Virus record (IMG/VR): IMGVR_UViG_2609459800_000001
Length of the DNA: 64,000 nt
DNA from: a virus
Lineage: Duplodnaviria > Heunggongvirae > Uroviricota > Caudoviricetes
Strand: one strand, 5' to 3'
Numbering within the stretch: the first letter of the stretch is position 1; every line of letters begins with the position of its first letter. Shown piece after piece: positions 22,181 to 54,288 of the stretch. Made by a program: the position numbers and the translations under genes. Below the pieces are notes generated by a model that saw nothing but the letters and a program-made list of their open reading frames with translations, searched no databases and was not told where the DNA came from.

Positions 22181-23224
22181 GTGAAAGCCGTAATTACTCC
22201 CTTTGTACAGAAAGAGCTTGGCCTCGCCACGTTCAAAGTGGATCAGGAGGTCAGAAAGCTGGTGGAGGCTGGCCGTAAATTTATTATGGAGCCGGTGCCG
22301 CGTGAGTTAATCGAGCACATGGAAGACGGCCTCGTTGTTACCGAGCAAACCATGGCAACAAATGAGGCGTTGCAGCCGTTTTTTAACAGCGATGAACTGT
22401 TTCGCCGTATTGGTGGAATTGACGCGCTGGTGGCGTGGTTGCGTAGGAAAGAGGGTCAATGCCAGGCCGCAGATCGTAGTTGGTGTGACAACCATATTGT
22501 CCACGCTGAACGAGACAATAGCGCGGTGTTGTTGTGCTGGCATCACGATAACCATTACCGGATGCGTGGTTTTAATGAGCTGAAAGAAACGCTGCACAAT
22601 AATCGCGTTAACTGGATACTGGATGTCGCCCGTCAGGAAATGGGCCTTTCAAATAGCCATGATTTAAGTATTCAGGAGCTGTGCTGGTGGGCTTTCATGC
22701 GCAACATGATGCACCTGATGCCGGAAGAAGTCTGCCGCATATCAATAAATAAGATGAAGGCTACTCCGCAGGATAGCGGACCTCTGAAAGAGGCGGATAT
22801 TCGCCCGTATGACGATCGCGCTACAGCATATGTTCAGATGATGGAAGAACGCGCCGCGCCGATGCGTGCAAAAGTATGCCCTGTGGATGTTGACTCCGAC
22901 CCAGGTATGGCGCATTTCAAGATACCAAAACTTCAATCGCTAAAATTGCCCGAGTACATGGACTTTGTGGCTTCCCGTCCATGCTGTGGCTGTGGAGCTG
23001 CGGGAGCTGGCGCTCACATTACGCCTTATATCGTTCGTCATAGTCGATTATGCGCGCATGACATTTATGCTATTCCTCTGTGCCAGTCATGCCAGCGTGA
23101 TATTGAGCGTGACCGCGATAATTGGGAGAAGACGCACGGTAGGCTGGCGATGCATCAACGATTGTTCTTTGATTACGCGCTTGGAGTCGGCGCTATCACA
23201 AGTCATTCGTCGAGTGTTAGATAA
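22181..23224 (+). CDS. pdcB: Cys/His-rich post-doc protein (DUF968-like)
   Basis: 347 aa with a GTG start. It has Cys/His clusters (CWHHDNHY; CCGCG...CQSCQRD). The name is by position. Confidence 0.5.
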
Positions 23225-23850: not shown

Positions 23851-25044
23851 GTGACCTGGGACGATCACAAGAAGAATTTTGCTCGCCTGGCGCGAGATGG
23901 TGGTTACACCATCGCACAGTATGCCGCCGAGTTTAATCTTAACCCTAATACCGCACGTCGTTATCTCCGTGCCTTCAAAGAAGACACCAGGACAGCGGAC
24001 AGCCGCAAGCCAAATAAGCCTGTCAGGAAACCACTAAAAAGCATGATCATTGATCACGCTAATGATCAACGTGCAGGTGATCACATTGTGGCTGAAATGG
24101 CTGAAAAACAAAGAGTTAATGCTGTTGTCAGTGCCGCACTCGAGAACGCGAAGCGCCAAAATAAGCGCATAAATGATCGTTCTGATGATCATGACGTGAT
24201 CACCCGCGCCCACCGGACCTTACGTGATCGCCTGGAACGCGACACCCTGGATGATGATGGTGAACGCTTTGAATTCGAAGTTGGCGATTACCTGATAGAT
24301 AACGTTGAAGCGCGGAAGGCCGCGCGCGCTATGTTGCGTCGGTCCGGGGCCGATGTTCTGGAAACCACTCTTCTGGAAAAGTCTCTTTCTCATCTCATTA
24401 TGCTGGAGAACGCCAGGGATACGTGTATTCGCCTGGTGCAGGAAATGCGCGATCAGCAAAAAGACGATGATGAAGGTACTCCGCCTGAATACCGTATCGC
24501 GAGCATGCTAAACAGCTGTTCCGCGCAGATAAGCAGTCTGATCAACACCATTTACAGCATCCGGAATAACTATCGAAAAGAAAGCCGGGAGGCGGAAAAG
24601 CACGCTTTATCTATGGGGCAAGCTGGCATTGTTAAGCTGGCATACGAACGAAAGCGTGAAAATAACTGGTCAGTGCTGGAAGCGGCTGAATTCATCGAGG
24701 CGCATGGAGGAAAAGTGCCTCCCCTGATGCTGGAGCAAATCAAAGCCGATCTGCGTGCTCCTAAGACCAATACCGATGATGAGGAAAACCAAACAGCATC
24801 TGGCGCTCCATCACTTGAAGATCTGGATAAAATCGCGCGAGAACGGGCCGCCAGCCGCCGCGCTGATGCCGCATTGTGGATTGAGCATCGTAGAGAAGAA
24901 ATTGCCGATATCGTCGATACAGGTGGTTATGGTGATGTCGATGCGGAAGGCATATCAAACGAAGCATGGCTTGAACAGGATCTGGACGAAGACGAGGAGG
25001 AAGACGAAGAAGTTACCCGCAAACTGTACGGGGATGATGATTAA
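23851..25044 (+). CDS. pacA: Terminase (pacase) subunit PacA
   Basis: 397 aa. [39 protein letters not shown]... matches P1 PacA, and the gene contains the pac site. Confidence 0.95.
24044..24202. other. pac: pac packaging site
   Basis: Four TGATCA hexamers (24044, 24051, 24063, 24078) and three TGATC(A/G) (24174, 24186, 24197) flank a ~90-bp core, the classic P1 pac layout with Dam sites. Confidence 0.9.
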
Positions 25045-26528
25045 TGGCCAGAAGTTGCGTAACGGACCCACGTTGGCGCGAGCTGGTGGCGCTATATCGT
25101 TATGACTGGATTGCGGCCGCTGATGTGTTGTTTGGGAAGACACCAACCTGGCAGCAGGATGAGATCATTGAGTCCACGCAGCAGGACGGCAGTTGGACAA
25201 GTGTGACCTCCGGCCATGGTACTGGTAAATCGGATATGACGAGTATCATTGCAATACTCTTCATCATGTTTTTCCCCGGCGCTCGCGTCATTCTGGTCGC
25301 TAACAAAAGACAGCAAGTCCTTGATGGTATTTTCAAATACATAAAGAGCAATTGGGCTACTGCTGTTAGCAGATTCCCGTGGTTGTCGAAGTATTTCATT
25401 CTTACAGAAACGTCTTTTTTTGAGGTGACTGGCAAGGGTGTTTGGACAATATTGATAAAGTCCTGTCGCCCCGGGAATGAGGAGGCGTTGGCTGGTGAAC
25501 ACGCCGATCATCTCTTGTATATCATCGACGAAGCGTCGGGTGTGAGTGATAAAGCATTCAGTGTGATAACAGGTGCGCTGACCGGTAAGGATAACCGTAT
25601 TCTGCTTCTTTCCCAGCCTACGCGACCTTCAGGCTATTTCTACGATTCACACCACAGACTAGCTATTCGCCCGGGAAATCCTGATGGATTGTTTACTGCG
25701 ATAATACTGAATAGTGAAGAATCTCCGCTTGTAGATGCAAAATTTATACGAGCAAAACTTGCGGAGTATGGCGGTCGTGATAACCCCATGTACATGATCA
25801 AAGTACGTGGTGAATTTCCCAAATCTCAAGATGGCTTTCTTCTTGGTCGTGATGAGGTTGAGCGGGCGACGCGGCGAAAGGTCAAGATTGCCAAAGGATG
25901 GGGCTGGGTTGCATGTGTTGACGTTGCTGGTGGCACAGGACGAGATAAGTCCGTTATTAATATCATGATGGTGTCCGGCCAGCGAAATAAACGCCGTGTA
26001 ATCAACTATCGTATGCTGGAATACACAGACGTTACAGAAACGCAGTTAGCCGCCAAGATTTTCGCAGAATGTAACCCAGAACGGTTCCCGAACATAACCA
26101 TAGCTATTGATGGCGATGGCTTGGGGAAATCGACGGCTGATCTAATGTACGAACGCTATGGCATTACCGTCCAGCGTATCCGCTGGGGTAAAAAGATGCA
26201 CAGCCGTGAAGATAAAAGCCTTTATTTCGATATGCGCGCTTTCGCGAATATTCAGGCGGCAGAAGCTGTAAAATCAGGGCGTATGAGGCTTGATAAGGGG
26301 GCTGCGACTATAGAGGAAGCATCAAAGATACCGGTAGGGATAAATTCCGCAGGTCAATGGAAGGTGATGTCAAAGGAAGATATGAAGAAAAAACTCAACC
26401 TGCACTCACCGGACCATTGGGATACATATTGTTTCGCTATGTTGGCGAACTATGTTCCCCAGGATGAAGTGCTTAGCGTCGAAGACGAAGCGCAGGTTGA
26501 TGAAGCTCTGTCATGGCTTAATGAATGA
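25044..26528 (+). CDS. pacB: Terminase large subunit PacB
   Basis: 494 aa with an ATGA overlap with pacA. It has Walker A-like SGHGTGKS and DEAS motifs. Confidence 0.9.
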
Positions 26529-26531
26529 ACA

Positions 26532-26548
26532 TTTGCTCTAATGAATTG
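26532..26548 (+). promoter_or_regulatory. C1 operator (variant) at the head of the immI-like module
   Basis: TTTGCTCTAATGAATTG has 1 mismatch in the core. Confidence 0.65.
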
Positions 26549-26679
26549 TGTTTTTTAACTACCGATGTTACATTGAACCTGACCTCTTGCGCCTTGAGGC
26601 ATTTTCGGTTTATGCTTATCAGGCACCTCATTAAAACGGGTGCCGGGATTGAGACCCCGGATAATGCAAAAGGCGACAC

Positions 26680-26702
26680 AGACGCCAAAAGCGTCTTTTT
26701 TT
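26680..26702 (+). terminator. Rho-independent terminator
   Basis: AGACGC-caaaa-GCGTCT plus T7. The outer GACACA/TGTGTC can extend the stem. Confidence 0.7.
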
Positions 26703-26744
26703 GTGTCATGCCATCGCACAGCCATACGTAGCGTTTAGCTCAGA

Positions 26745-26860
26745 GATCAATGGTAGTGCTGGCTGGGCTGCCGAAAGGCAGGCCGGTTCCCTTTTGCGCC
26801 GGTAGTCTCAACCCAGTCAGTGCTACCGCCATTGAGATTGAGACCTCACGCGGTAGCTCC
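26745..26860 (+). ncRNA. c4: c4-like structured antisense/regulatory RNA (boundaries approximate)
   Basis: A long interrupted helix (26747-26761 with 26818-26835) encloses a GAAA-tetraloop hairpin. An internal GTCTCAA is complementary to TTGAGAC copies at 26649 and 26838. It lies directly upstream of icd/ant, as in P1 immI. Confidence 0.45.
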
Positions 26861-26887
26861 TTAAATTAGCAAAAGGAGGCTGCCATT

Positions 26888-27109
26888 GTGGCTACTATCC
26901 CTACCCCAACTCATCCTGAATTTATCTGGCGCTTTTACTCCTGCCAGAAACGTCACTATCACTTCGTTATTGCACCGACAGAAGATGAGGCTCGCTCTCA
27001 GCTTCCGGATGCACCCTGTATTTTCTCTGCCCGCTTTTCTACCGATTCGCGCAATTCTCTCAGTTACTGGAGCCTCCCTGTTAACGCTTCTGCTCAGGAG
27101 GGACTATGA
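26888..27109 (+). CDS. icd: Icd-like cell-division inhibitor
   Basis: 73 aa with a GTG start after AAAAGGAGG. It has the ...FIWRFY...EDEARSQLP... pattern of Icd-like proteins and is translationally coupled (ATGA) to ant. Confidence 0.65.
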   Translation: MATIPTPTHPEFIWRFYSCQKRHYHFVIAPTEDEARSQLPDAPCIFSARFSTDSRNSLSYWSLPVNASAQEGL

Positions 27110-28218
27110 GAACGTCATTAGTCACCCGTGAAGAGATGATCGAGGCAATTGAACAGCACACTGCCTGTATCAGTACCAGGGATATACCGGGCGTTATTGC
27201 CAACTACTTCATGATCACCAAACAACTTTACCGGAGAAAGGACAAGAACTCGGTTCACCGCATTCTGCTAACCGATATCCGTGAATACCTGCTCGAACAG
27301 GGTCATCTGAATTACGCAACCGTCGCAGCCGAAGCACGCAAGGAGGCACACAGAATGAAAGCAACTAACGTTAAATCAGAAAAAATTTATGCACCTTCAG
27401 TTCAGGAATCGGAACTGGTGGTTGTTCAGAATCAGCCGGATGAAATTCCCGTTCTGGAATGGCAGGGAGTACGTGTCGTGACAACCGAAACTCTTGCTAG
27501 AGGGTATGGGGTCGATGAAGCCAATATTCGCAACAATTTGTCTCGCAACCTTGACCGCTTTGAAGAAGGTAAGCATTACTTTCTTCTAACTGGTTTAAAA
27601 TTAAGAGAATTTAAGAACAGAGTAACCGGAAGTTACTCTGTTGGTAAGAACGCCAGAAGCCTTACACTCTGGACAGAGCGCGGCGCTGCACGCATGTCTA
27701 AGATCGTGGACACAAATGAAGCATGGGCATTCTTTGAAAAACTGGAAGACAGCTACTTCCGGCAAAAAGAACAGCAACCGGTTGCAATCCCCCAAACATT
27801 ACCAGAAGCCCTACGCCTGGCTGCCGAACTGGCTGAACAAAAGCAGCTTCTGGAACAGAAAGCCCACCAGCTAAATCAGCAGCTGGTGGCCGCCGCTCCT
27901 AAGGTCGATTTTGCCGACCGGGTATCAGTAGCTAAAGGGATCCTGATTGGGAATTTTGCAAAGGTTGTTGGACTTAAGCAAAATGCGCTGTTTGCCTGGT
28001 TACGGGAGAACGGCATCCTGATAGCGTCCGGTGGACGTAAAAATGTGCCGTTCCAGCAGTACATTAACGCCGGGTATTTCACGGTGAAAGAAGTGGTGCT
28101 GGATGATGAAGATGGCTACCAGATACGGTTGACGCCTCAATTAACGGGTAAAGGCCAGCAGTGGTTGACGCGTAAACTGCTCGATGCTGGCTTGTTAAAA
28201 CCGGTGGCAGCTGAATAA
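27106..28218 (+). CDS. ant: Antirepressor (ORF6N + KilA-C/ANT domains)
   Basis: 370 aa. The central segment VLEWQGVRVVTTETLARGYG...HYFLLTG...LWTERGAARM is ORF6N-like. The C-terminal APKVDFADRV...FAKVVG...LFAWLRENGIL...GYF is an ANT/KilAC domain. Confidence 0.75.
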   Translation: MRTSLVTREEMIEAIEQHTACISTRDIPGVIANYFMITKQLYRRKDKNSVHRILLTDIREYLLEQGHLNYATVAAEARKEAHRMKATNVKSEKIYAPSVQESELVVVQNQPDEIPVLEWQGVRVVTTETLARGYGVDEANIRNNLSRNLDRFEEGKHYFLLTGLKLREFKNRVTGSYSVGKNARSLTLWTERGAARMSKIVDTNEAWAFFEKLEDSYFRQKEQQPVAIPQTLPEALRLAAELAEQKQLLEQKAHQLNQQLVAAAPKVDFADRVSVAKGILIGNFAKVVGLKQNALFAWLRENGILIASGGRKNVPFQQYINAGYFTVKEVVLDDEDGYQIRLTPQLTGKGQQWLTRKLLDAGLLKPVAAE

Positions 28219-28225
28219 TGGAAGA

Positions 28226-28247
28226 ATGCCCGGTTGATGCCGGGCAT
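28226..28247. terminator. Bidirectional terminator between the convergent ant and c1 genes
   Basis: ATGCCCGG-ttgatg-CCGGGCAT hairpin. Confidence 0.7.
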
Positions 28248-28250
28248 AAT

Positions 28251-29102
28251 TTATTGCGCGCTTTCGGGGTTGTCGTTTACTGGCTGCCCCTTCTTGGTTT
28301 TACGGCTGCGCGTAACTGATGCGGCTGACTTAACCTTTTTCTCTTCGCGAGTGATGGCAATTTGTTTTTTTACATTTTCAATATCTGCCAGGCGATATAT
28401 TTTTGCTTGCGGCCAGCGGTCGCAGATGATCGGTTCTATGGAGTCATAAAGGCTAAATTTTGCTTTTTCGAATTCACCGTTGATGATAATTCCATCACGG
28501 AGAGTTTCATCGCAGATAAACACGCCACACAGTGGCACATGGTAACTAACTGATTTACCATCATTGTAGTTAGGGCTACTGGAAATGTAGTGGACGCGCA
28601 GCATTGTTTCGCTAAAGCCGTGTACGCGCATACGGAATTTTTCATCCTCCGGGTACTGCCTCATTAGCTCTTTTGTTGCTTCCAGGTTCTCTATGTATTT
28701 CGCACTGTGCTCATTGATCCCCGCGCTTTTTTGGATGCGAATGTCCTTATCAATCAGATGAATAATGCGGCCAGCGGTCATGTTGACGCTGTTCACAGCT
28801 TCTGTCTGATAAGTTGTAACCTTGCGCACACCGCGAAGGATGTTAGGCACTGGATATAAAATAGTCTTTGGGATATTGAGGTCTGGGTACTGTTCCAGTT
28901 CCCGCGCCATTAAAGTCCATTTATCAATTTCAGCCTGAATGCTGTCAGTTTCTTTGAACGGTAGAACGACAACCGGGCGTACAGGACGACCGTCGCTGGC
29001 TGTATCAACGTGTTGGGCGCGTGCAACAGCTTTTTTTAGAAAGAGATCCCTGAAGCTGACGAACTCCTGGTACAGTTGTTCGCCGTAGACATAATTTATC
29101 AT
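28251..29102 (-). CDS. c1: Primary immunity repressor C1
   Basis: 283 aa. MINYVYGEQLYQEFVSFRDLFLKKAVARAQ... is recognisably P1 C1. Confidence 0.95.
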   Translation of the reverse strand: MINYVYGEQLYQEFVSFRDLFLKKAVARAQHVDTASDGRPVRPVVVLPFKETDSIQAEIDKWTLMARELEQYPDLNIPKTILYPVPNILRGVRKVTTYQTEAVNSVNMTAGRIIHLIDKDIRIQKSAGINEHSAKYIENLEATKELMRQYPEDEKFRMRVHGFSETMLRVHYISSSPNYNDGKSVSYHVPLCGVFICDETLRDGIIINGEFEKAKFSLYDSIEPIICDRWPQAKIYRLADIENVKKQIAITREEKKVKSAASVTRSRKTKKGQPVNDNPESAQ

Positions 29103-30255: not shown

Positions 30256-31287
30256 ATGTCTAATTTACTGACCGTACACCAAAATTTGCCTGCATTACCG
30301 GTCGATGCAACGAGTGATGAGGTTCGCAAGAACCTGATGGACATGTTCAGGGATCGCCAGGCGTTTTCTGAGCATACCTGGAAAATGCTTCTGTCCGTTT
30401 GCCGGTCGTGGGCGGCATGGTGCAAGTTGAATAACCGGAAGTGGTTTCCCGCAGAACCTGAAGATGTTCGCGATTATCTTCTATATCTTCAGGCGCGCGG
30501 TCTGGCAGTGAAAACTATCCAGCAACATTTGGGCCAGCTAAATATGCTTCATCGTCGGTCCGGGCTGCCACGACCAAGTGACAGCAATGCTGTTTCACTG
30601 GTCATGCGACGGATCCGAAAAGAAAACGTTGATGCCGGTGAGCGTGCAAAACAGGCGCTGGCGTTCGAACGCACTGATTTCGACCAGGTTCGTTCACTCA
30701 TGGAAAATAGCGATCGCTGCCAGGATATACGTAATCTGGCATTTCTGGGGATTGCTTATAACACCCTGTTACGTATAGCCGAAATTTCTAGGATCAGAGT
30801 TAAAGATATCTCACGTACTGACGGTGGGAGAATGTTAATCCATATTGGCAGAACGAAAACGCTGGTTAGCACCGCTGGTGTAGAGAAGGCACTTAGTCTG
30901 GGGGTAACTAAACTGGTTGAGCGATGGATTTCTGTCTCTGGTGTGGCTGATGATCCGAATAACTTCTTGTTTTGCCGTGTCAGAAAAAATGGTGTTGCCG
31001 CGCCATCTGCCACCAGCCAGCTATCAACTCGCGCCCTGGAAGGGATTTTTGAAGCAACTCACCGATTGATTTACGGGGCTAAGGATGACTCTGGCCAGAG
31101 GTACCTGGCCTGGTCTGGACACAGTGCCCGTGTCGGAGCCGCGCGAGATATGGCCCGTGCCGGAGTTTCAATACCGGAGATCATGCAAGCTGGTGGCTGG
31201 ACCAACGTAAATATTGTCATGAACTATATCCGTAACCTGGATAGTGAAACAGGGGCAATGGTGCGCCTGCTGGAAGATGGCGATTAG
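30256..31287 (+). CDS. cre: Cre tyrosine recombinase
   Basis: 343 aa. MSNLLTVHQNLPALPVDATSDEVRKNLMDMFRDRQAFSEHTWK... is essentially P1 Cre, with a few substitutions such as AEISRIR and NNFLF. Confidence 0.99.
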   Translation: MSNLLTVHQNLPALPVDATSDEVRKNLMDMFRDRQAFSEHTWKMLLSVCRSWAAWCKLNNRKWFPAEPEDVRDYLLYLQARGLAVKTIQQHLGQLNMLHRRSGLPRPSDSNAVSLVMRRIRKENVDAGERAKQALAFERTDFDQVRSLMENSDRCQDIRNLAFLGIAYNTLLRIAEISRIRVKDISRTDGGRMLIHIGRTKTLVSTAGVEKALSLGVTKLVERWISVSGVADDPNNFLFCRVRKNGVAAPSATSQLSTRALEGIFEATHRLIYGAKDDSGQRYLAWSGHSARVGAARDMARAGVSIPEIMQAGGWTNVNIVMNYIRNLDSETGAMVRLLEDGD

Positions 31288-31997: not shown

Positions 31998-32635
31998 ATG
32001 TTCATCAGAGCTTATTTAAGGGCATCAACGGAAGATCAGTTTGCCGATCGGGCAAAAGAGATGCTGGGGCAGTTTGTTCAGGAGCGGGGACATAAAATAG
32101 CCAGTTACTACCGGGAGAACATAAGCGGTACAAAACTCGACCGCCCGGAACTGGGACGCTTACTGATGGACAGCCACCGCAATGATATTTTACTGGTCGA
32201 GCAAATTGACCGCCTGACCCGTCTGAGTAACAGTGACTGGATTACGCTGAAAAAGCAGATAGAACAACACGAACTGCGGATTGTCGCCTGGATGTATCCA
32301 CCTCATGGCAGGCGCTGTCAGATAAAGACCCTTCGCAGGCTGACCCAATCACCCGCGCCGTGATAACCGCCATCAATAACATGCTTATCGACCTGATGGC
32401 CGCGATGTCGCATAAGGACTGGCTGAGCCGTCGCCAACGGCAACAACAGGGAATTGAACGGGCTCATACGCTGGGTAAATACCGGGGATAACAGGCCGAT
32501 CAGGAACGGCATCAGAAAGTCCTGTACTACCGGCAGGTCAAGAAACTAAGTATCCATGAAACGGTAGATGCGACAGGGTACAGTCCTTCACAGATATGCC
32601 GCATTCAAGAGAGCCTGAATCGGAATAAAAAGTAG
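31998..32635 (+). pseudogene. Serine recombinase/resolvase (tnpR-like), disrupted
   Basis: The N-terminus MFIRAYLRASTEDQ... has the catalytic Ser motif. There is a -1 frameshift near 32288 (GTCGCC|CTGGAT) and an in-frame TAA at 32489..32491. The C-terminal HTH can be read through to 32635. Confidence 0.75.
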
Positions 32636-32734: not shown

Positions 32735-33148
32735 TCAGGCTGACAACTGTCGGAGGATATCCGCTGTATTATAATGAGCCCGTTTTTCTATATATTTCCC
32801 GTCCTTCAGAGTGATCATAAATATCAGAGAAAAGCGCACTTTCCTGCCGCTGGCAGGATGCCCAAGGAATTCACGGGTCTGCACGCCTTCAAAGATAAGA
32901 TAGCAGGCGACTTTATCGTCTCTGGCAAAGATTTCGTGGATACGCATTGTAAATCCCGGAAAAGCATCCATATGGCCTTTTTCCTGTACGATAAACTGCT
33001 CACTGTTCAGCGGTGTATCCACCTGAGAATAGAATTTAAAATCCGGATGGCAGAGGTTTTTCACCTCATCATATTTATTTTCTTCAATCAGACGATAAAA
33101 CTTTTTAACCGTTTTGATATTTTCTTCAACAGACATATTGCACCTCAT
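32735..33148 (-). CDS. SnoaL-like / ester cyclase family protein
   Basis: 137 aa with the NTF2-like pattern (...KKFYRLIEENKYDEV...DFKFY...HMDAFPGF...). Confidence 0.55.
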   Translation of the reverse strand: MRCNMSVEENIKTVKKFYRLIEENKYDEVKNLCHPDFKFYSQVDTPLNSEQFIVQEKGHMDAFPGFTMRIHEIFARDDKVACYLIFEGVQTREFLGHPASGRKVRFSLIFMITLKDGKYIEKRAHYNTADILRQLSA

Positions 33149-34134
33149 TTTTCAGTTTCTTTACCTGCCGGAATATTGCCTGCCGGCGTTCCGTTAAATG
33201 TTTTTCGCCATTCACTGGGACTGACTCCCATCCGCTGCCGGAATATCTGCCGGAAAGTAATGGTGGACTGAAAGCCTGCCAGTTCGGCAACCCGCTCCAC
33301 TGCAATATCTGTACTTTCCAGCAGTTCCTGACTCCGCCGGAGACGCTCTGTGGTGATCCACTCCCAGACCGTCATTCCTGTGGCCGAATGAAAATGGCGT
33401 GTAAGCGTTCTTCGGCTCATGGAGGCTAAATGGGCCAGAGTGTCAATATCATGTGGTAATCCCAGATTTGCGGACAGGTATTCCAGCAGCTGGTTTATGC
33501 GGTTATCGGACGTACTTTTGGGAATAAGCAGTTGCCGGTACTGTGCCTGTCCGCCTTCCCGGTAAGGAGGAGCAACCATCCGGCGGGCTATTTGATTAGC
33601 CGTATATCTGCCCAGGCGTTGCCGGATCACATGGAGACAACAGTCCAGTGCTGCGGCTGTACCGGCTGAGGTGATAATCCGCTCGTCCTCAACATAAAGC
33701 ACGTTCACGTCCAGATGAACCGCCGGGAAAAGCATCTGGAAATCCCGTTCAGCCTCCCAGTGCGTGGCCGCCCGTTTACCATCCAGCAGACCGGTGTAAG
33801 CCAGAACAAAACTCCCCAGGCACAGGCCCACCACCTGAGCTCCATTTTTCCAGGCTGCAACCAGGGCACTGAGCAGAGTTTCAGAAGGCCTTTCATGGAT
33901 GTGTTTCCAGAAAGGAATAATAACGATATCGGCCTCTGCCAGTGCATCAAGCCCGTATTCTGCCCTCATCGCCGTACCTTCAGCAGACCAGATAAGCCCG
34001 GGCTCTTCCGCACATACCCGGCGGCTGAAGAGAGCCTTCCCTTCCAGTATCTCCCCGAACAGGATTAGTGGAACGGAGACATGAAATGTACTGAACCCTT
34101 CGGTGATCACTATAGCGACAGTGATGGTGGACAT
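33145..34134 (-). CDS. GlxA-family transcriptional regulator (DJ-1/PfpI domain + AraC HTH)
   Basis: 329 aa. The N-terminal DJ-1-like domain has GLCLGSFVLA and the C-terminus has an AraC-type double HTH. Confidence 0.75.
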   Translation of the reverse strand: MSTITVAIVITEGFSTFHVSVPLILFGEILEGKALFSRRVCAEEPGLIWSAEGTAMRAEYGLDALAEADIVIIPFWKHIHERPSETLLSALVAAWKNGAQVVGLCLGSFVLAYTGLLDGKRAATHWEAERDFQMLFPAVHLDVNVLYVEDERIITSAGTAAALDCCLHVIRQRLGRYTANQIARRMVAPPYREGGQAQYRQLLIPKSTSDNRINQLLEYLSANLGLPHDIDTLAHLASMSRRTLTRHFHSATGMTVWEWITTERLRRSQELLESTDIAVERVAELAGFQSTITFRQIFRQRMGVSPSEWRKTFNGTPAGNIPAGKETEK

Positions 34135-34149
34135 GCCATGGCCTCCGGG

Positions 34150-34926
34150 TTAAATCGTAACTGATTCACCATCAGCAGGAACGGCAACTGACGCCTGGAT
34201 CTGGTTATCGCGGGCATATTCCAGCAGTTCCTGACGGGTCAGCAGACAGTGGTTTACGGCCTCCATGTGCGTTGCCACAATCAGTGCCTCTGGTACGATA
34301 CGATGGGCTTTCAGGACATCTTCCCTGCCGAAAATAATGGGGCCGAATCCGAGAACATGCGCCCAGCCCGTATTCATAATAACGACGCCAGGATTGAACC
34401 GACGTAAATTATCCTCTACAGCCTTGATCCAGATGGTATCCCCGACCAGATAGAGCGTTTTTTCGGACGGATGCTGGAAGACCACCCCACAGGCATCCCC
34501 AAGGATTGCTGCGAGTTGCGGGTTAGCATAGGCTTCGTCCGAACCATGCTGACAAACGGTTTTAATAAGTGAAATTTCGCCAAATGTGCTTTTGTCAGAC
34601 AGAATAACAAGGTTGCTGAAGCCCTGGGAACGCAGGATCTTTTCATCATGTTCATTCTGAACATAAATCAGTTTATCTTTCGGGATGTGCGCAACAGCCG
34701 CTTCATCCCAGTGGTCAGGGTGTGTGTGGGTGACAATAATGGCATCCACATCCAGCAGTACATCAAGGTCAAAAGGCAGCTCAGTCATCGGGATGCGGAT
34801 ATCTGACCGGGCCGTTCCTTCGAATCCCGGATAGGCTTCTTTTTTCGCAAGCATCGGATCGACAAGAAATTTTTTACCAGCGTAAGAAATGAGTTGTGTG
34901 GCGTTACGTACCTGGATGATCTTCAT
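34150..34926 (-). CDS. MBL-fold metallo-hydrolase
   Basis: 258 aa with the HxHxDH motif (VTHTHPDHW). Confidence 0.75.
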   Translation of the reverse strand: MKIIQVRNATQLISYAGKKFLVDPMLAKKEAYPGFEGTARSDIRIPMTELPFDLDVLLDVDAIIVTHTHPDHWDEAAVAHIPKDKLIYVQNEHDEKILRSQGFSNLVILSDKSTFGEISLIKTVCQHGSDEAYANPQLAAILGDACGVVFQHPSEKTLYLVGDTIWIKAVEDNLRRFNPGVVIMNTGWAHVLGFGPIIFGREDVLKAHRIVPEALIVATHMEAVNHCLLTRQELLEYARDNQIQASVAVPADGESVTI

Positions 34927-40691: not shown

Positions 40692-42092
40692 ATGTTTGGT
40701 CTTGATGCGTATCACCTGGCAAGGATCCAGTTCGCCTTTACAGTTTCATTTCACATTATCTTTCCGGCGATCACCATTGGGCTTGCCAGTTATCTGGCGG
40801 TGCTGGAAGGCCTTTGGCTAAAAAGCAAAAATCCGGTCTGGCGCTCGTTGTACCACTTCTGGTCAAAAATATTCGCCGTAAATTTCGGCATGGGCGTGGT
40901 TTCCGGTCTGGTGATGGCCTATCAGTTCGGCACCAACTGGAGCGGTTTTTCGGAATTCGCAGGCAGTATTACCGGGCCGTTGCTTACCTATGAGGTGCTG
41001 ACCGCTTTCTTCCTTGAAGCCGGATTCCTCGGGGTGATGCTGTTTGGCTGGAATAAAGTCGGTCCGGGTTTGCATTTCTTCTCAACCTGCATGGTGGCGC
41101 TTGGCACCCTCATTTCCACCTTCTGGATCCTGGCGTCTAACAGTTGGATGCAAACGCCGCAGGGGTTTGAGATCGTCAACGGCCAGGTTGTGCCCGTGGA
41201 CTGGTTCGCCGTTATCTTCAATCCTTCGTTCCCTTATCGGCTGCTGCATATGTCCGTCGCCGCATTTCTCAGTAGCGCGCTGTTTGTCGGCGCTTCGGCA
41301 GCCTGGCATCTGCTGCGCGGCAACGCAACGCCAGCCATTCGCACGATGTTTTCCATGGCGTTGTGGATGACGCTTATTGTCGCGCCGGTGCAGGCGTTAA
41401 TCGGCGATATGCATGGGCTGAACACCCTGAAACATCAGCCAGCCAAAATCGCCGCGATTGAAGGTCACTGGGAAAACCCGCCGGGTGAGCCCACGCCGCT
41501 GCTGCTGTTTGGCTGGCCGGATATGGAACAGGAACGCACCCGCTATGGACTGGCGATCCCGGCGCTGGGAAGCCTGATCCTGACGCACAGTCTGGATAAA
41601 CAGGTTCCGGCGCTAAAAGAATTCGCCAAAGAGGATCGCCCTCACTCGACGATCGTGTTCTGGTCGTTTCGCATCATGGCCGGCCTGGGCATGTTAATGA
41701 TCCTGCTAGGGCTCTGTGCGCTCTGGCTGCGCTACAGGCAGCGCCTCTACACCTCGCGCCCGTTCCTGCGCTTTGCGCTATGGATGGGACCCTCGGGGCT
41801 CATCGCCATTCTCGCGGGCTGGGTGACCACTGAGGTCGGACGCCAGCCGTGGGTGGTGTACGGTTTACAGCGTACTGCCGACGCGGTGTCGGCCCACGGC
41901 GATTTACATATGAGCATTTCGTTGCTCGCTTTCTTTGTTGTCTACAGCTCAGTCTTTGGCGTCGGCTACAGCTATATGATTCGCCTGATCCGCAAAGGCC
42001 CGCTGGAAGATGATTCCGCGCCGCCGCCGGGCACACCCGCCAGGCCGCTTTCCGCCGCCGTCCTCGATTCTCAACATAAGGCACATCGCTAA
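40692..42092 (+). CDS. cydA: Cytochrome bd-type ubiquinol oxidase subunit I (short-Q-loop, CioA-like)
   Basis: 466 aa. ...ARIQFAFTVSFHIIFPAITIGLA...GWVTTEVGRQPWVVYG... are hallmark CydA motifs. It is shorter than E. coli CydA/AppC. Confidence 0.9.
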   Translation: MFGLDAYHLARIQFAFTVSFHIIFPAITIGLASYLAVLEGLWLKSKNPVWRSLYHFWSKIFAVNFGMGVVSGLVMAYQFGTNWSGFSEFAGSITGPLLTYEVLTAFFLEAGFLGVMLFGWNKVGPGLHFFSTCMVALGTLISTFWILASNSWMQTPQGFEIVNGQVVPVDWFAVIFNPSFPYRLLHMSVAAFLSSALFVGASAAWHLLRGNATPAIRTMFSMALWMTLIVAPVQALIGDMHGLNTLKHQPAKIAAIEGHWENPPGEPTPLLLFGWPDMEQERTRYGLAIPALGSLILTHSLDKQVPALKEFAKEDRPHSTIVFWSFRIMAGLGMLMILLGLCALWLRYRQRLYTSRPFLRFALWMGPSGLIAILAGWVTTEVGRQPWVVYGLQRTADAVSAHGDLHMSISLLAFFVVYSSVFGVGYSYMIRLIRKGPLEDDSAPPPGTPARPLSAAVLDSQHKAHR

Positions 42093-43102
42093 TGGGTATT
42101 GATTTATCGGTTATCTGGTTTGTGATCATCGTTTTCGCCACGCTAATGTATATCGTGATGGATGGATTCGATTTGGGTATTGGCATTCTGTTTCCTGTCA
42201 CACGAAACGCAGAGGATCGTGATGTGATGGTCAATAGCGTCGCGCCGGTGTGGGACGGTAATGAAACCTGGCTGGTGCTGGGCGGCGCGGGGCTGTTTGG
42301 GGCTTTCCCGATGGCCTATGCGGTTATTATCGATGCGCTGACCATTCCGTTGACGCTGATGCTGATCGGACTGATTTTTCGCGGCGTGGCCTTCGAGTTT
42401 CGCTTCAAGGCCACGCCAGCCCACCGCCCATTTTGGGACCATGCTTTTCTCGGCGGGTCGATTCTGGCTACCTTCGCCCAAGGGATCGTGGTTGGCGCAG
42501 TGATCAACGGTTTCCCGGTGACCGGTCGCAGCTACAGCGGCGGGCCGTTCGACTGGTTAACCCCCTTCACTCTGTTCTGTGGCGTCGGACTGGTCGTTGC
42601 CTATGCGCTCTTAGGCGCAACCTGGCTGGTGATGAAAAGCGAAAATCCGCTTCAGGATAAAATGCGCAGCGTCGCGAAAAAACTGCTGCTGGCCCTGCTG
42701 TTGTCAATTGCGATAATCAGCCTCTGGACACCGTTAGCGCATCCGGCGATCGCCGACCGTTGGTTTACGCTTCCCAACCTGGGCTATCTGCTGCCGGTTC
42801 CGGTGCTGGTGATCGCGTTCAGCGTCTGGTTATGGCGCACACTGGGTCGTCCGGAAAACCACACGTTTCCGTTTGTGCTGACGCTCGGGCTAATCTTCCT
42901 TGGTTTCAGCGGCCTGGGCATCAGTATCTGGCCGCACATTATTCCGCCTTCGGTTACCCTCTGGCAGGCAGCCGCCCCCGCCCAGAGTCAGGGGTTTATG
43001 CTGGTCGGTGCGCTGCTCATCATTCCGGTGATTTTGGTGTACACCTTCTGGAGTTACTATGTGTTTCGCGGCAAAGTGCAACATGGCGAGGGGTATCACT
43101 GA
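42092..43102 (+). CDS. cydB: Cytochrome bd-type ubiquinol oxidase subunit II (CioB-like)
   Basis: 336 aa with a TAATG overlap with subunit I. It has the MDGFDLGIGIL...WDGNETWLV motif. Confidence 0.9.
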   Translation: MGIDLSVIWFVIIVFATLMYIVMDGFDLGIGILFPVTRNAEDRDVMVNSVAPVWDGNETWLVLGGAGLFGAFPMAYAVIIDALTIPLTLMLIGLIFRGVAFEFRFKATPAHRPFWDHAFLGGSILATFAQGIVVGAVINGFPVTGRSYSGGPFDWLTPFTLFCGVGLVVAYALLGATWLVMKSENPLQDKMRSVAKKLLLALLLSIAIISLWTPLAHPAIADRWFTLPNLGYLLPVPVLVIAFSVWLWRTLGRPENHTFPFVLTLGLIFLGFSGLGISIWPHIIPPSVTLWQAAAPAQSQGFMLVGALLIIPVILVYTFWSYYVFRGKVQHGEGYH

Positions 43103-48086: not shown

Positions 48087-48636
48087 TGACCAGTCCCGTC
48101 AGGCAAAGCTGGCGTTCTTTTTCACGGCGAATCTTTAAACCTCGCAGGGGCACGCCGTTACTGTTCACGAAATCAGGGAGATGGTTACACATATTCACCC
48201 ATTCCCCTTTCTGCGCCCACTTGTGGATGGACGTTTCTACTCGCATGCCTCGCGCTTTGCTGTAGTAGGTCCGTAAGCTATTACATCCCATATTGAATGC
48301 CGCGCTTGTCATTGCACTGAAGGCATTATCGGGCATGTCTTTGCCCCGGAAGTGCTGATTAATACAGCGTTCAGCGATCAGGATATTCTTTTCCCAATCA
48401 GCGGCGATTTGCTGGTCGGTTTTTCGCACACCCGGCGTTACCCCGTGTGTATTACCGATCCCGTCAGTCCATACCCCCGCCGGGCACATGTATGGATCAC
48501 GTCGGCAACCTTCAGCGTTACCAATCAGCTCAAGCCCTGCCTGGTTGGTTCGCACATTGCCATTACCCATCACGATGGTAATCATCACCGCGATAGCGCA
48601 AATTGCACCGCCTCCTGCGGCTGTTTTTCCCTTCAT
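48079..48636 (-). CDS. lyz: SAR endolysin (T4-lysozyme family)
   Basis: 185 aa from MKGKTAAGGGAICAIAVMITIVMG (signal-arrest-release segment), then ...ELIGNAEGCRRDPY...DGIGNTHG. This matches P1 Lyz. Confidence 0.9.
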   Translation of the reverse strand: MKGKTAAGGGAICAIAVMITIVMGNGNVRTNQAGLELIGNAEGCRRDPYMCPAGVWTDGIGNTHGVTPGVRKTDQQIAADWEKNILIAERCINQHFRGKDMPDNAFSAMTSAAFNMGCNSLRTYYSKARGMRVETSIHKWAQKGEWVNMCNHLPDFVNSNGVPLRGLKIRREKERQLCLTGLVNE

Positions 48637-48723
48637 AAAGACCTCATAAGCGAATTTTTTACGCTCCAGGACAAACACTCATTCACAGCCAATACCGACT
48701 GACTCGATCCCTTTAGAAGGCAC

Positions 48724-48745
48724 AGGATAATGCAAATCACTTGTT
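48724..48745 (-). promoter_or_regulatory. Candidate late promoter of lyz (AACAAGTGATT-N5-TATCCT on the minus strand)
   Basis: Shared late-motif architecture, about 90 nt upstream of lyz. Confidence 0.55.
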
Positions 48746-48769
48746 AGCTACGTTTCAAAGATATACATT

Positions 48770-48786
48770 ATTGCTCTAATTAATTT
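48770..48786 (+). promoter_or_regulatory. C1 operator upstream of ssb
   Basis: ATTGCTCTAATTAATTT is near-consensus. Confidence 0.85.
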
Positions 48787-48805
48787 ATTTTATTAGGTAA
48801 GATAA

Positions 48806-49294
48806 GTGGCACAACGCGGTGTAAACAAAGTCATCCTGATTGGTACCCTGGGGCAAGACCCGGAGATCAGGTATATACCAAATGGCGGCGCGGTCGGAAG
48901 ACTCAGCATCGCAACGAATGAATCATGGCGCGACAAGCAAACGGGCCAACAGAAAGAGCAAACAGAATGGCATAAAGTCGTTTTGTTCGGAAAACTTGCT
49001 GAAATTGCGAGTGAGTATTTACGAAAAGGTTCTCAGGTCTACATCGAAGGGAAACTTAAAACCCGTAAGTGGACAGATGACGCCGGTGTAGAACGTTACA
49101 CGACGGAAATTATCGTCAGCCAGGGCGGCACCATGCAAATGATCGGCGCTCGCCGTGACGATTCACAGTCCTCAAATGGCTGGGGGCAATCAAACCAACC
49201 TCAAAACCACCAGCAATACAGTGGTGGCGGTAAACCTCAGAGCAACGCCAATAACGAACCTCCAATGGACTTTGACGACGATATTCCGTTTTGA
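48806..49294 (+). CDS. ssb: Single-stranded DNA-binding protein
   Basis: 162 aa. [17 protein letters not shown]...[12 protein letters not shown]... OB fold and the acidic tail DFDDDIPF. Confidence 0.95.
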
Positions 49295-49491
49295 ATGTGT
49301 AAAAAACGACTGAAAGAAAAGCGGTGGTCCAGACGCCGACAAAAGCACGAACTCGCAAACAAACGCCAAAGTTGGCAATGGCACGCGCTTTTCACGAAAA
49401 GAACACCCCGAGATATTGCTTTCGCTGGTGGGAAAACATTCCTGACCCACCTGAAGGCGCAATACATCAGGTTTTAAGCAGAGGAAAGACT

Positions 49492-50169
49492 ATGAATAAC
49501 ATGACAACGAAAGAGCTTTTGACGGCACTTCCAAAATACAAAAGCCATAAAACAGTTCGCGCCTCAAAAATCAAAGATATCGAAATTATCGCCCTAATGG
49601 ATGTGGTCCTTTTTTGCAACATCGAAGTCGTTGAGCCAGAAGGGGTAAAAGTCCATGTTGATAAAATGTTTTTGCAAAAACACCGACCAGAAATTGGCGG
49701 ATATCTGGTCGCTTATGAGGACGGATCTCTGTCCTATTCACCAGAAAAAACATTTGAAGAAGGCTTTAGTCGGACTAACGACTTCTTCGAAAATGGGGTA
49801 TCGCTCAGTATTGAAGGTCACAATGGGGTGACATTCATTACAGCCAGGGACGTAACTATTGCTGCCAGTGGCATCATTACCACACAAGAAGAAATCGACC
49901 TTGAAGCAGCCGACTTTTCTGACGCGCTGATGTGGCTGAAGGATGGCAAGAAAGTTGCTCGACGCGGGTGGAACGGCGAAAACCAATTCTGCTGGCTGGT
50001 TCCTGAAGGACAGTACCCGGCACGAATGGAAGCCATTAAGGGATATTTCCCCGGCGACCTCGTTCCGTATGGTGCTTATTTCGCCTTAAAAAATGCACAA
50101 GGTGTAGTTGTTCCGTGGGTGCCTTCTGTATGCGACTTACTGGCATGTGACTGGTTTGTAGTGGAGTGA
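49492..50169 (+). CDS. Two-domain protein with a C-terminal DUF2829 (Tad2-like) domain
   Basis: 225 aa from ATG 49492 (RBS AGAGGAAAG). The C-terminal ~85 aa FSDALMWLKDGKKVARRGWNGENQF...VVPWVPSVCDLLACDWFVV fit the DUF2829 pattern. Confidence 0.65.
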   Translation: MNNMTTKELLTALPKYKSHKTVRASKIKDIEIIALMDVVLFCNIEVVEPEGVKVHVDKMFLQKHRPEIGGYLVAYEDGSLSYSPEKTFEEGFSRTNDFFENGVSLSIEGHNGVTFITARDVTIAASGIITTQEEIDLEAADFSDALMWLKDGKKVARRGWNGENQFCWLVPEGQYPARMEAIKGYFPGDLVPYGAYFALKNAQGVVVPWVPSVCDLLACDWFVVE

Positions 50170-50993: not shown

Positions 50994-51311
50994 TCAATAT
51001 ACGATCTGGTCTACATGATCCCCAAAATCATCGTCGTCATCGTCGTCGTCCTCATCGCCACCCTCTACTGCTGGCCAATCAACAAACCAGCCAGCGTAAA
51101 GATGCAGCGTTCGGAGAACATCACTTGCGGGAGCATCAAGGGTGTTAACGAATCCCATATAGCTATTGGGATTTGCCCCAGCTATGGCTTCAGCGATCAT
51201 GTCCTCGGTAATGTCACCGGAGATAATGCTTAAACGCCCGGAAACTTCTTCATTATCATCAAATTCGATAATGGCATCTCCGCCTAATGGCGCTGCGATT
51301 TTAATCTGCAT
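50994..51311 (-). CDS. Small highly acidic protein with a poly-Asp tract (last gene of the dar operon)
   Basis: 105 aa ending ...GGDEDDDDDDDDFGDHVDQIVY. Its start overlaps the ddrB stop by 11 nt. Confidence 0.6.
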   Translation of the reverse strand: MQIKIAAPLGGDAIIEFDDNEEVSGRLSIISGDITEDMIAEAIAGANPNSYMGFVNTLDAPASDVLRTLHLYAGWFVDWPAVEGGDEDDDDDDDDFGDHVDQIVY

Positions 51312-54288
51312 TATTTAGCTCCTTTGCCACACCTAATAACAGTTCCAGCAATCCGTCACCATTCATCAGTGATGCGGCAGCGGCCTCTTTGTCATGATAC
51401 AACTGAAGAGCCATAGAGAATACTTCCGTTGCTGACGTTTTGGAAATAGTCGGGGATTTCTGCCGAATTTTCCCAGTGTTACTTACTGAGGCTGGCGGGG
51501 ATACCTTCGCCATATAAATATTACTCAATCGAGATCTGAAGCACCATTCAGGCTTGCCACGCCCACCGATATTAACGAAAGATGGCTTATCCCCTTCAAC
51601 ATTGGCCTTCAGGAATGACCGGGCTTTCTCTAACAAACCAGGGTTACTGTACTCAAGATGATGACCCAGCTCGTGCCACAGTGCACTTGCATTTTCATCG
51701 TTCAAATTGACAGCAACAACACCATTAAGATTTGCATATGCCCTTCCCTTGTGGTGAACCACCTTTGATAAGGTCGAAATTTTACCGCCGGTCAGGCGAT
51801 AAATATCAGCAAGTTCCTTGCGCAGGTCTATCCCACCATTCTGTCCAGCGCGGGCTTCTTCCACTTCTTCCGTGATAAAAGAGTCGGCCCACTCAAGAGC
51901 TTTTTCTTCAGATACGGATGAGTTTGCGATCGCACTGTTCATGGCAGATAACACTTTCTCGTGGACCGAACCCATACTTCGCTGATTCATTTGCCAGCGT
52001 GTCTGCGGGTTATATGAGAATCGCTTAAGTAGTTGGTCAAGATGCTCAAGTTCTTCTTCACTGACATACTTTTTAGCCTCACCAATAATGCCAGGGAGAA
52101 TATTGCCGTTAGGATTAAACGCTCGCGAAAGGAAGAGTTTCAGCGCCCCCATGCCCTCCGATGCTTCAATATCACCAATAACCCGGTTAACAATGGCCGC
52201 ACTCTTCGGATTAGCATCCGCCAACGCTCTGGCTACAATTTGCAGGGACGATACGACCTCACGCTGCATATCCGTCCTGATCTCATCAATAAACTCTGGC
52301 GTTATGCCGTGCTCTTTAAGGATATCCCTGCCTTCCGCCGTTACCCCATCGATATCACCGACATGTTTATTAACCCGACTTTGCAATGCCTTAAATGCCT
52401 TCAGAATTCCACGGGCATCATCAGCTTTACTAACGGCCTTCCTGAATGCTGGCAAGAAGTCAGAGTTAACCTCATTTTGTTGATCGGCCCACTGAATGGA
52501 GGCTTCTTTCATCTCGTCCAGAGTCAGATCACCCAACGCGGTATGGTCTGTGAATATGAGCGACAACCTCTGAACCATTTCTGCCAATGGTGATGCCGAA
52601 TGCGCCGCGCTAAGGAATGCTTTCACCCTGGTTGGGCGAATGGAAAACCAGTCAATAGCTGGTGGCATATCTCCGTTTTTTATCGCCTGCGCTATCTCGT
52701 CAAAGCCATCGCGCCCAAGGGAGGATGCGTGATTTAACAAGCCGCGAAGTAACGAATTGCTGATACCGAATAATCGGCACCATTTTTTCACGTCGGCAAC
52801 AGGCATTCGAACAAAATGCGCAAGCACTTGTACAAGCTGTTCATCCTGGGGATCTGTGCGGGAAAGCAGCCTGATCAGATGAATAATGTCTTTGATGCCG
52901 GATGCCCGATGTAATAGCAAACTGGTATACGGAGCAACACCGTTGTAACTACCGCCGGAAACGGACTCGAAAAGACCGCCGGATATCCCTTGCATGCCTT
53001 CGTATTCCAGTTCCTGAGACACCTGGCGAAGGATATCCTGTAACGACACATCGCCGCCGCCAAACATATCCCCGAGCGCCTGGCCCTGGTGCTGTAACTC
53101 ATCATTGATACGTTGCGCCATCAACTTAAAGGCGGTGGCCATACGCTTCGCGCTACGGTTATTCGCGACGATGAACAACGCGAGTGCTTTCACTTCCGGG
53201 GCCGTTTCGCTGAACATATCCCCCTGAGCAATAACATCGGTAATATGCTGGCCTGACTCCTTCGATTGCCTTACCAGGTCTACCGCATCTTTCAATGCCG
53301 CCAGCGCCTTTTTATCGAGGCTATCCGCTGTCTCAATGCCATCAACAATAGTTGTCACAGCCTGCTTGTGCGCTTCTCCTGATAAAGCCTGCATCTGGAC
53401 AAAATCATTGGCTGCCGCATTAAGCGCCGTCAGAACATTACGCATATCCGGATCAGGTTCTTCTGCAACCATCCTTACCAGGCGCGCATCCTTATATGCC
53501 TTGGCAAAGATCGCGTTTTGTATACGGTCAACAAGTTGCCGTGTTGGTCGCCCATCTTCAGTTACAAGGCCAGCCGCCTGTGTGGCACCAACTTGCGTCA
53601 TGAATCCGCGAATAAACGCGTCATTACTGCGGCTAAGCAGATCTCCGCTTTCTGACGGGTTAAACAACGCCATCATCGCCGGTGTTATGCTGTCGGCATC
53701 AACAAAAGCCTTTTCACTGGCTGCCATTTCCTGGAGATCAGAAATATTTGAGTCCTTGGCAAACTGAACACGGTCAACCTTCGTTAACCGGCGGCGCACC
53801 AGTACCGGAGCCGTCATTGATTCAACCTTTTCAGGCCGTATGCCGAATTCGGTCGCATGTTCAATCAGGTACTCCCGATACCGATCCGCATTACCGTCCT
53901 GATAGGCTTTGATGATCCCCATGGTCCGTCCATTACCTGACTCAACGGCATTGTCCTCACCAATTATCGGCGCGCCATGGCTGGATAAACCGGAATCAGT
54001 AAGCTGAGCAGGCCGCAAATCTTTGGATATCTGGTTAACCTGAAGAAGGCTGGATGCGCGGGTCCGGTCGCGCGGCTGAAGTTCCTGGGGATAGTCAGGA
54101 TTAATTTTCCCATCCAGAGTATTGGATACCAAAAGAGCTGAGGCATCGACGATATCAAACGCTGTTTTTACCTCGTCTCCCTTCGCTGTCACCACATACG
54201 AAACCCGCCCATAATCGGGCAGGTTCTTTAGCAGCTCGATCAGCGTTTCTATGCTGGTGGCCATTACCACCTGATCGCTTAAGCTCAT
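51301..54288 (-). CDS. ddrB: Large dar-operon protein DdrB
   Basis: 995-aa ORF downstream of darA/ddrA as in P1. It contains an HELGH (HExxH) motif encoded at 51661..51675. Confidence 0.7.
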   Translation of the reverse strand: MSLSDQVVMATSIETLIELLKNLPDYGRVSYVVTAKGDEVKTAFDIVDASALLVSNTLDGKINPDYPQELQPRDRTRASSLLQVNQISKDLRPAQLTDSGLSSHGAPIIGEDNAVESGNGRTMGIIKAYQDGNADRYREYLIEHATEFGIRPEKVESMTAPVLVRRRLTKVDRVQFAKDSNISDLQEMAASEKAFVDADSITPAMMALFNPSESGDLLSRSNDAFIRGFMTQVGATQAAGLVTEDGRPTRQLVDRIQNAIFAKAYKDARLVRMVAEEPDPDMRNVLTALNAAANDFVQMQALSGEAHKQAVTTIVDGIETADSLDKKALAALKDAVDLVRQSKESGQHITDVIAQGDMFSETAPEVKALALFIVANNRSAKRMATAFKLMAQRINDELQHQGQALGDMFGGGDVSLQDILRQVSQELEYEGMQGISGGLFESVSGGSYNGVAPYTSLLLHRASGIKDIIHLIRLLSRTDPQDEQLVQVLAHFVRMPVADVKKWCRLFGISNSLLRGLLNHASSLGRDGFDEIAQAIKNGDMPPAIDWFSIRPTRVKAFLSAAHSASPLAEMVQRLSLIFTDHTALGDLTLDEMKEASIQWADQQNEVNSDFLPAFRKAVSKADDARGILKAFKALQSRVNKHVGDIDGVTAEGRDILKEHGITPEFIDEIRTDMQREVVSSLQIVARALADANPKSAAIVNRVIGDIEASEGMGALKLFLSRAFNPNGNILPGIIGEAKKYVSEEELEHLDQLLKRFSYNPQTRWQMNQRSMGSVHEKVLSAMNSAIANSSVSEEKALEWADSFITEEVEEARAGQNGGIDLRKELADIYRLTGGKISTLSKVVHHKGRAYANLNGVVAVNLNDENASALWHELGHHLEYSNPGLLEKARSFLKANVEGDKPSFVNIGGRGKPEWCFRSRLSNIYMAKVSPPASVSNTGKIRQKSPTISKTSATEVFSMALQLYHDKEAAAASLMNGDGLLELLLGVAKELNNAD

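Follow-up and report, generated by a model that had tools for sequence, protein, structure and literature searches.

A probable second, heterospecific immI-type operon between pacB and c1 in a P1-like phage-plasmid

The stretch of DNA analyzed here (IMG/VR record IMGVR_UViG_2609459800_000001; 64,000 nucleotides (nt), hereafter the window) belongs to a P1-like phage-plasmid. Between its pacB gene and the convergent c1 repressor gene lies a segment, 26529-28250, that is probably a complete and functional second immI operon, heterospecific to the canonical one, repressed both by C1 and by its own C4 RNA, with a leader RNA that competes for C4. A predicted C1 operator, an isrK-family leader RNA, a C4 antisense RNA, icd and the antirepressor gene ant all fall within 26532-28218. 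An earlier sequence-only reading, made without database searches, had listed an operator, a terminator, a structured RNA region, icd and ant, the last two joined by an ATGA overlap, and each of these parts was found where it had been placed. The terminator proposed at 26680 is real and is the 3′ end of the isrK-family RNA, and the structured region is, according to Rfam, the C4 antisense RNA.

The segment replaces a very short piece of the P1 genome. By blastn, the window matches P1 with 99% identity up to position 26526 and with 96% nucleotide identity from 28252 on; in between, a 27-nt stretch of P1, made up of the 24-bp pacB-c1 spacer and adjoining bases, is replaced by 1,725 nt. The only sequence shared by the replaced stretch and the right end of the insert is ATGCCGG. 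In the P1 reference (NC_005856), pacB ends at 93206 and c1 at 93231, and immI (Oc4-c4-icd-ant1/2) occupies 48140-49731, between simA and kilA. The sequence-only reading had given this map correctly, with pacB and c1 adjacent and immI elsewhere. The arrangement in the window does differ from the P1 and P7 references, and an immI-type module is here physically linked to immC.

The RNA portion of the segment follows the design of P1 immI. In P1, the b′ sequence in the second-hairpin loop of C4 and the a′ sequence in the next single strand pair with b2 and a2 over the icd ribosome-binding site. In the window, C4 has b′ (CCTTTTGC, 26790-26797) in its second-hairpin loop, then a′ (GTCTCAA, 26805-26811), and its 3′ end contains ACCGCCA. 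Both sequences find exact complements on the icd-ant mRNA, where part of b2 lies within the Shine-Dalgarno sequence of icd, AAGGAGG (26873-26879). A further copy of each target, a1 (TTGAGAC, 26649-26655) and b1 (GCAAAAGG, 26666-26673), is held in the leader and is likewise exactly complementary to C4. The four sites a1, b1, a2 and b2 occupy the same structural positions as in P1, with the a1/b1 copies upstream in both elements. The leader ends in an intrinsic terminator found by a terminator scan, consisting of the hairpin AGACGC-CAAAA-GCGTCT (26680-26696) and a T-run, and the predicted fold of the RNA from 26623 to 26900 is much more stable than that of shuffled controls (z = -5.6).

These pairings are conserved while the sequences that form them change. 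We compared 11 modules from P1-like plasmids, D6 and Shiga toxin (Stx)-converting phages. For a1:a′ and b1:b′ together, 99.4% of cells were paired, and the covariation score was 0.625, against at most 0.139 when the partners were slid; for a′:a2 and b′:b2 all cells (100%) were paired, and the score of 0.636 fell to 0.103 or less on sliding. Put in terms of pairing, 99-100% of cells in the 11 modules pair in register, compared with no more than 52% when slid. When chromosomal loci of Salmonella, Shigella and E. albertii were included, the outcome for the a sites was the same and the number of distinct a sequences, or keys, rose to eight. The sites a1/a′/a2 and b1/b′/b2 co-vary three ways, with at least eight a keys distributed from P1-like plasmids to E. 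albertii. An 18-mer pattern scan of the genome collection gave mostly chance hits in unrelated phyla, and the enterobacterial loci alone were retained from it.

Upstream of the leader, the predicted operator at 26532-26548 aligns column for column with P1 Op51/Oc4, and also with the canonical operator of the related phage JL22. When up to 3 mismatches were allowed, the C1-operator consensus matched 13 times in the window, against 0.29 matches expected by chance, and the other matches include known operator positions, such as the site upstream of lpa. Repression by C1 at 26532-26548 is thus predicted from a sequence match. Two candidate promoters were assigned by their positional homology, in the alignment, to annotated P1 hexamers. 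One takes the position of P51a (P2c4) and the other that of P51b (P1c4); the P51b-like candidate has its predicted start near 26623, where the isrK match also has its 5′ end. The lone plus-strand hit of the promoter scan in the leader, at 26838-26867, was dismissed as being at chance level.

The protein-coding part also resembles immI of P1 and P7. In addition to the order of the parts, the homologous operator and promoter region, the C4 family and the a′/b′-a2/b2 pairing over the icd ribosome site, the likeness extends to an icd product 80% identical to that of P1, to the coupling of icd and ant (the stop and start overlap as ATGA at 27106-27109), to the dual Ant1/Ant2 start and to the ANT C-terminal domain. 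Over its full length, the window Ant shares 57% identity with P1 Ant1, and the N- and C-terminal thirds are conserved. Pfam recognizes both ORF6N (PF10543; E 2.5e-18, 66.6 bits vs a cut-off of 27.8) and ANT/KilAC (PF03374; E 1.5e-31, 109.4 bits vs 25.3). An Ant2-like product is predicted from an in-frame internal ATG at 27355 (codon 84) with AAGGAGG at 27340-27346, and P1 Ant2 starts at the same codon of ant1. The differences from P1 and P7 are the site (sim-kilA in P1, the pacB-c1 spacer here), the leader (c4-a1b1 in P1; here isrK, which has an additional 5′ hairpin and a clear terminator), the a/b sequences, and the presence of ORF6N as the middle of Ant.

That last difference raises the question of what Ant acts on. 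The protein might not be aimed at P1 C1 at all, acting instead on the repressors of co-resident prophages, or it might be regulatory or anti-defence cargo that is merely regulated by C1. The central ORF6N domain is missing from P1 Ant1, and in D6 and Stx phages this isrK-C4 leader controls unrelated regulators of the Rha type, which suggests that the RNA control unit is portable between effectors. We consider such a target unlikely nonetheless, as clear homology to P1 Ant1 is seen in the N-terminal 85 and C-terminal ~145 residues of Ant, its two in-frame starts (Ant1/Ant2) are kept, a C1 operator stands at the Op51 position, and the same ORF6N+ANT type of protein is found at the canonical immI site in the plasmid pEC2_5 (NZ_CP041960). 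Homology to P1 Ant1 suggests instead that Ant would act on the C1 protein of this element.

Taken as a second immI operon, the segment would work as follows. Transcription would start from two weak promoters, one P51a-like and overlapped by the C1 operator, the other P51b-like. The isrK-family leader would be made first, and transcription would either stop at 26701, where the terminator lies, or read through. C4 would then lie within the read-through RNA and would presumably be excised as in P1. By the complementarity and covariation described above, its a′ and b′ should pair with a2 and b2 and cover the icd ribosome-binding site. A block of icd would stop the ATGA-coupled translation of ant, and C1 repression would not be released. 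Since the leader carries a1 and b1, copies of the same targets, it should act as a decoy, or anti-antisense, RNA that competes for C4; covariation supports the pairing on which this role would depend. Promoter use, C4 processing, Rho-dependent polarity as in P1, the binding of Ant to C1 and the decoy role of the leader are all proposed by analogy.

At the far end of the operon, between the convergent ant and c1 stops, the sequence-only reading had placed a bidirectional terminator. A GC-rich hairpin is indeed present there, but with weak T-runs on either strand the label is plausible at most. The hairpin is specific to the insert-bearing junction, as it does not occur in the P1 spacer and is unlike the terminator that follows the canonical ant.

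The a and b keys distinguish the module from the canonical ones. The window has a = TTGAGAC and b = GCAAAAGG, while P1 has a = TTGACAG and b = GTTAGTGA, and the canonical module of JL22 has a = TTGACAG and b = GATTGTGA. Inserts at the same junction differ among themselves: relative to the window, that of RCS47 shows a concerted change in b1/b′/b2 (GTCAAAGG / CCTTTGAC / GTCAAAGG), and that of vB_EcoM-673R5 (673R5) has a = TTGGCC and b = GTCTAAGG. It is established that P1/P7 heteroimmunity is due to far smaller differences in c4 (summarized in PMC6906374 and PMC12197685). From these key differences the module in the window is expected to be heterospecific to the canonical one, and the two would be controlled independently.

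The identity of the leader connects this operon to a second group of systems. The Rfam family c4-a1b1 (RF03163) has no match in the window, whereas the P1 leader does match it, with 51 bits; by Rfam, the leader is of the c4-a1b1 type in P1 and of the isrK type in second modules and in D6. In five enterobacterial genomes (Salmonella, Shigella, E. albertii and E. coli loci), every isrK is followed by a C4 RNA within ~25-35 nt, and the isrK-C4 tandem is also widespread in Stx phages. Phage D6, in orf83-orf82, has the same isrK-C4-icd unit, ~90% identical over isrK, C4 and most of icd and 96% identical over the RNA leader, with a/b keys identical to those of the window. D6 differs in having no C1-operator-like sequence upstream and in its effector, which is Rha-type and not ORF6N+ANT. 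D6-like plasmid prophages with two c4-icd regions have been reported.

Another isrK system is that of Gifsy-1 in Salmonella, in which a short IsrK RNA activates translation of the read-through orf45-anrP mRNA in trans by pairing with “orf45”, and in which an RNA of ~80 nt, STnc1160, is processed from the orf45 region (PMC4825925). The paper describing this switch (Hershko-Shalev et al. 2016; PMC4825925) mentions neither C4, icd nor P1. The Gifsy-1 IsrK/orf45/AnrP system is like the operon described here in its isrK-family RNA, leaky terminator, small upstream open reading frame (ORF), AUGA coupling and antirepressor. It differs in that orf45 overlaps the C4-like region, there is no icd, and the antirepressor controls antQ. 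By analogy, the leader in the window may activate its read-through mRNA in trans in the manner of Gifsy-1, and the Gifsy-1 interaction would then be the a1:a′/b1:b′ pairing. In the literature we searched, no paper connects isrK with C4; later papers list each RNA on its own or place one next to the other. The link, a side result of this analysis, may be unreported.

It is tempting to go one step further, and we do so tentatively, at rather less than even odds. The isrK RNA may be the a1b1 partner of C4, a decoy acting in trans that switches on icd-ant by titrating C4; the Salmonella IsrK switch and P1 immI would then be one circuit with many orthogonal keys, of which P1-like phages stack two, one of them convergent against c1. 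The canonical a1b1 leader of P1 (2780-2815 in the numbering of our record L004) has a hairpin CCGCA...TGCGG and then TATTTTTGTG. This end resembles the isrK terminator, so P1 might likewise make a short a1b1 RNA.

A 39-amino-acid (aa) ORF (26750-26869, plus strand) lies on the C4 gene, and its RefSeq relatives are labeled “ash family protein” (in pEC2_5, 3712-3831 in the numbering of our record L009). The window version has no NCBIfam match, and we set it aside. It is probably a translation of the C4 RNA gene, as is Gifsy-1 “orf45”.

The position of the insert is not new, having already been deposited, annotated and put in print. The RCS47 record (FO818745) annotates an ant gene between pacB and c1, and Venturini et al. 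2019 (PMC6906374) reported that pTZ20_1P has ant and two short ORFs inserted between its pacB and c1 genes, “as in RCS47”. The same pacB-insert-c1 arrangement is present in JL22 (98.8% identity, 100% coverage) and RCS47 (95.6%, 92% coverage), with both flanks spanned, and 673R5 has the insert at the same junction with 88.7% identity. The insertions in RCS47, JL22, 673R5 and pTZ20_1P share the junction with that in the window and differ from it only as alleles. Where earlier published descriptions speak of “two short hypothetical orfs”, Rfam identifies isrK and C4 here.

Nor is the architecture unusual. In PLSDB, 307 plasmids have the insert-bearing junction and 314 the contiguous P1-type junction, which puts the insert in about half of the P1-like plasmids there, and 315 of 5,426 complete E. 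coli genomes have at least 80% of the insert, nearly always on plasmids. More than 300 plasmids have the module, with identities of 87-99%. Among the 1,134 places matched in complete E. coli genomes, 27 are chromosomal, and some plasmids, such as NZ_AP042542, have up to six places that match the module.

The module is most likely additional to the canonical immI in this lineage, as judged from its relatives. The sequence-only reading had implied that immI was relocated, and had called for P1-like genomes to be compared for a second copy. That comparison speaks for addition: all three sequenced phages with the insert (RCS47, JL22 and 673R5) also have the canonical c4-icd-ant1/2-kilA-repL block, which is 95-98% identical to that of P1 and lies at 43.3-46.0 kb in JL22. 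Of 14 insert-bearing plasmids sampled, 13 have at least two places per record that match the query, which we read as a second ant-like region. The opposite case would be a relocated, sole immI, in which the canonical copy is missing and a single c4-icd-ant beside c1 forms a compact immunity block. The window would allow this, as its limits leave the canonical site unseen and blastn with the P1 immI region found none of sim, kilA and repL within it. A few insert-bearing plasmids, such as H63, have only one matching place, and pEC2_5 is an example of a P1-like plasmid whose isrK-type module is its only one. In pEC2_5, however, that module sits at the canonical site and not beside c1. Given this and the second copies found in the relatives, we regard a sole, relocated immI as distinctly improbable.

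The pEC2_5 module resembles that of the window in its isrK, C4, icd and ORF6N+ANT Ant (363 aa), and differs in its canonical site and in its a key, TTGGAAC. It lies upstream of kilA-repL (3501-5159 in L009 numbering) and is 87.6% identical to the window module, and the pacB-c1 junction of this plasmid is P1-type. The homology runs from the window operator (26533) to 28209, 9 nt short of the ant stop. These limits suggest that the mobile unit is exactly operator-to-ant and that it moves as a block. On this sequence comparison, the operator-to-ant unit is exchangeable between the canonical and pacB-c1 sites.

Remnants of the insert also occur. In NZ_CP070923 and NZ_CP010243, degraded P1-derived segments in IncF/IncHI plasmids hold c1-coi and only the 3′ end of the second ant, truncated by IS1 or IS5, so that the ancestors of those plasmids carried the insert. 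We considered whether such remnants indicate that P1 is a deletion derivative and found them uninformative, as they reflect IS1/IS5-bounded deletions in degraded plasmids. That the cassette in the window is itself a functionless, decaying recombination remnant is hardly credible, for while truncated ant 3′ ends do lie by c1 in some plasmids, those examples are IS1/IS5-flanked and in degraded plasmids, whereas here every reading frame is intact, the RNA elements exceed the Rfam gathering thresholds, and the target sites co-vary in a unit conserved in hundreds of plasmids.

Several points weigh against the interpretation of the segment as a second immI operon with a competing leader. The consensus promoter scan flagged neither the P51a-like nor the P51b-like hexamers, both of which are weak and fall below its threshold. 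The canonical immI site of this genome lies beyond the limits of the window, and PLSDB holds no identical complete record, the best one having 97.6% identity over 82% of the initial 25 kb; for both reasons, the designation “extra copy” is drawn from relatives. ORF6N replaces the middle third of Ant, and the connection from Ant to C1 is a prediction from homology, as the decoy role of the leader is from pairing. Finally, we tried to equate the mutation-validated Gifsy-1 pairs, G28:C162 and G31:C159, with a1:a′ or b1:b′, and they did not map onto either in the Salmonella locus, where residues and register were mismatched (the allele or the helix differs).

The features of the segment and its neighboring genes are collected in Table 1.

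Table 1. Coordinates of the operon between pacB and c1 and of flanking genes in the window
Feature	Position	Strand	Details
pdcB	22181-23224		followed by lpa
pacA	23851-25044		after lpa
pacB	25044-26528		5′ of the 1.72-kb segment
Op51-like C1 operator (predicted)	26532-26548	+	TTTGCTCTAATGAATTG; 4 nt past pacB stop; 3 mismatches to consensus ATTGCTCTAATAAATTT
Candidate promoter, P1 P51a (P2c4) position	-35 TTGTGT 26546-26551; -10 TACATT 26569-26574	+	-35 overlaps operator
Candidate promoter, P1 P51b (P1c4) position	-35 TTGCGC 26587-26592; -10 TATGCT 26611-26616	+	aligns with P1 TTGACC/TATAGT
isrK-family leader RNA	26623-26701	+	Rfam RF01394; 59 bits vs gathering score 50; model positions 1-77 of 77
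C4 antisense RNA	26746-26833	+	Rfam RF01695; 75 bits vs gathering score 45; full length
C4 target sites on icd-ant mRNA	a2 TTGAGAC 26838-26844; b2 GCAAAAGG 26869-26876	+	exact 7- and 8-nt complementarity
icd homologue	26888-27109	+	73 aa; GTG start; 80% identity to P1 Icd (E 6e-42); NCBIfam NF033153 Icd-like, 49.8 bits
ant	27106-28218	+	370 aa; Ant1-like; Pfam ORF6N + ANT/KilAC
GC-rich 9-bp hairpin	28226-28247	.	between convergent ant and c1 stops (c1 stop 28251); terminator-like hit on + strand
c1 repressor	28251-29102	-	283 aa; convergent with ant; context, outside the insert; NCBIfam phage_rep_C1, 612 bits
cre	30256-31287		beyond c1 and coi

Farther along, 3′ of cre, the window carries cargo unlike that of P1 (33145-43102) at the position of P1 res/mod/darB. 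It encodes a regulator of the AraC/DJ-1 type (33145-34134) and a protein with an MBL fold (34150-34926), both on the minus strand, as well as subunits I and II of cytochrome bd oxidase (40692-43102); ddrB-like (51301-54288) and darA (54663-56582) genes come after it. A 121-aa ORF (31998-32363, plus strand), which appears to be truncated, is similar to the catalytic N-terminal part of a serine recombinase/resolvase and may be the remnant of a transposon insertion near cre.

The significance of the pacB-c1 arrangement itself is small, as it is a frequent allele of P1-like phage-plasmids. It does mean that, at this junction, about half of natural P1-like elements are not represented by the P1 and P7 references. 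The covariation ties the isrK small RNA (sRNA) family to C4 and provides a testable account of the a1/b1 sites of P1, which have long been unexplained. The isrK-C4 link also offers an explanation for the activation of antirepressor translation by IsrK.

Where both modules are carried, a lysogen would have immunity against superinfection by phages of either key, and a phage with two keys would, as a superinfector, escape a resident that has only one of them. If our broader proposal is true, stacked orthogonal circuits would widen the immunity of the phage and break that of its single-key relatives. It is common for natural P1-like elements to have two antirepressor circuits, predicted to be orthogonal, which bears on heteroimmunity, on co-residence and on the prediction of induction, and is relevant because many P1-like plasmids carry resistance.

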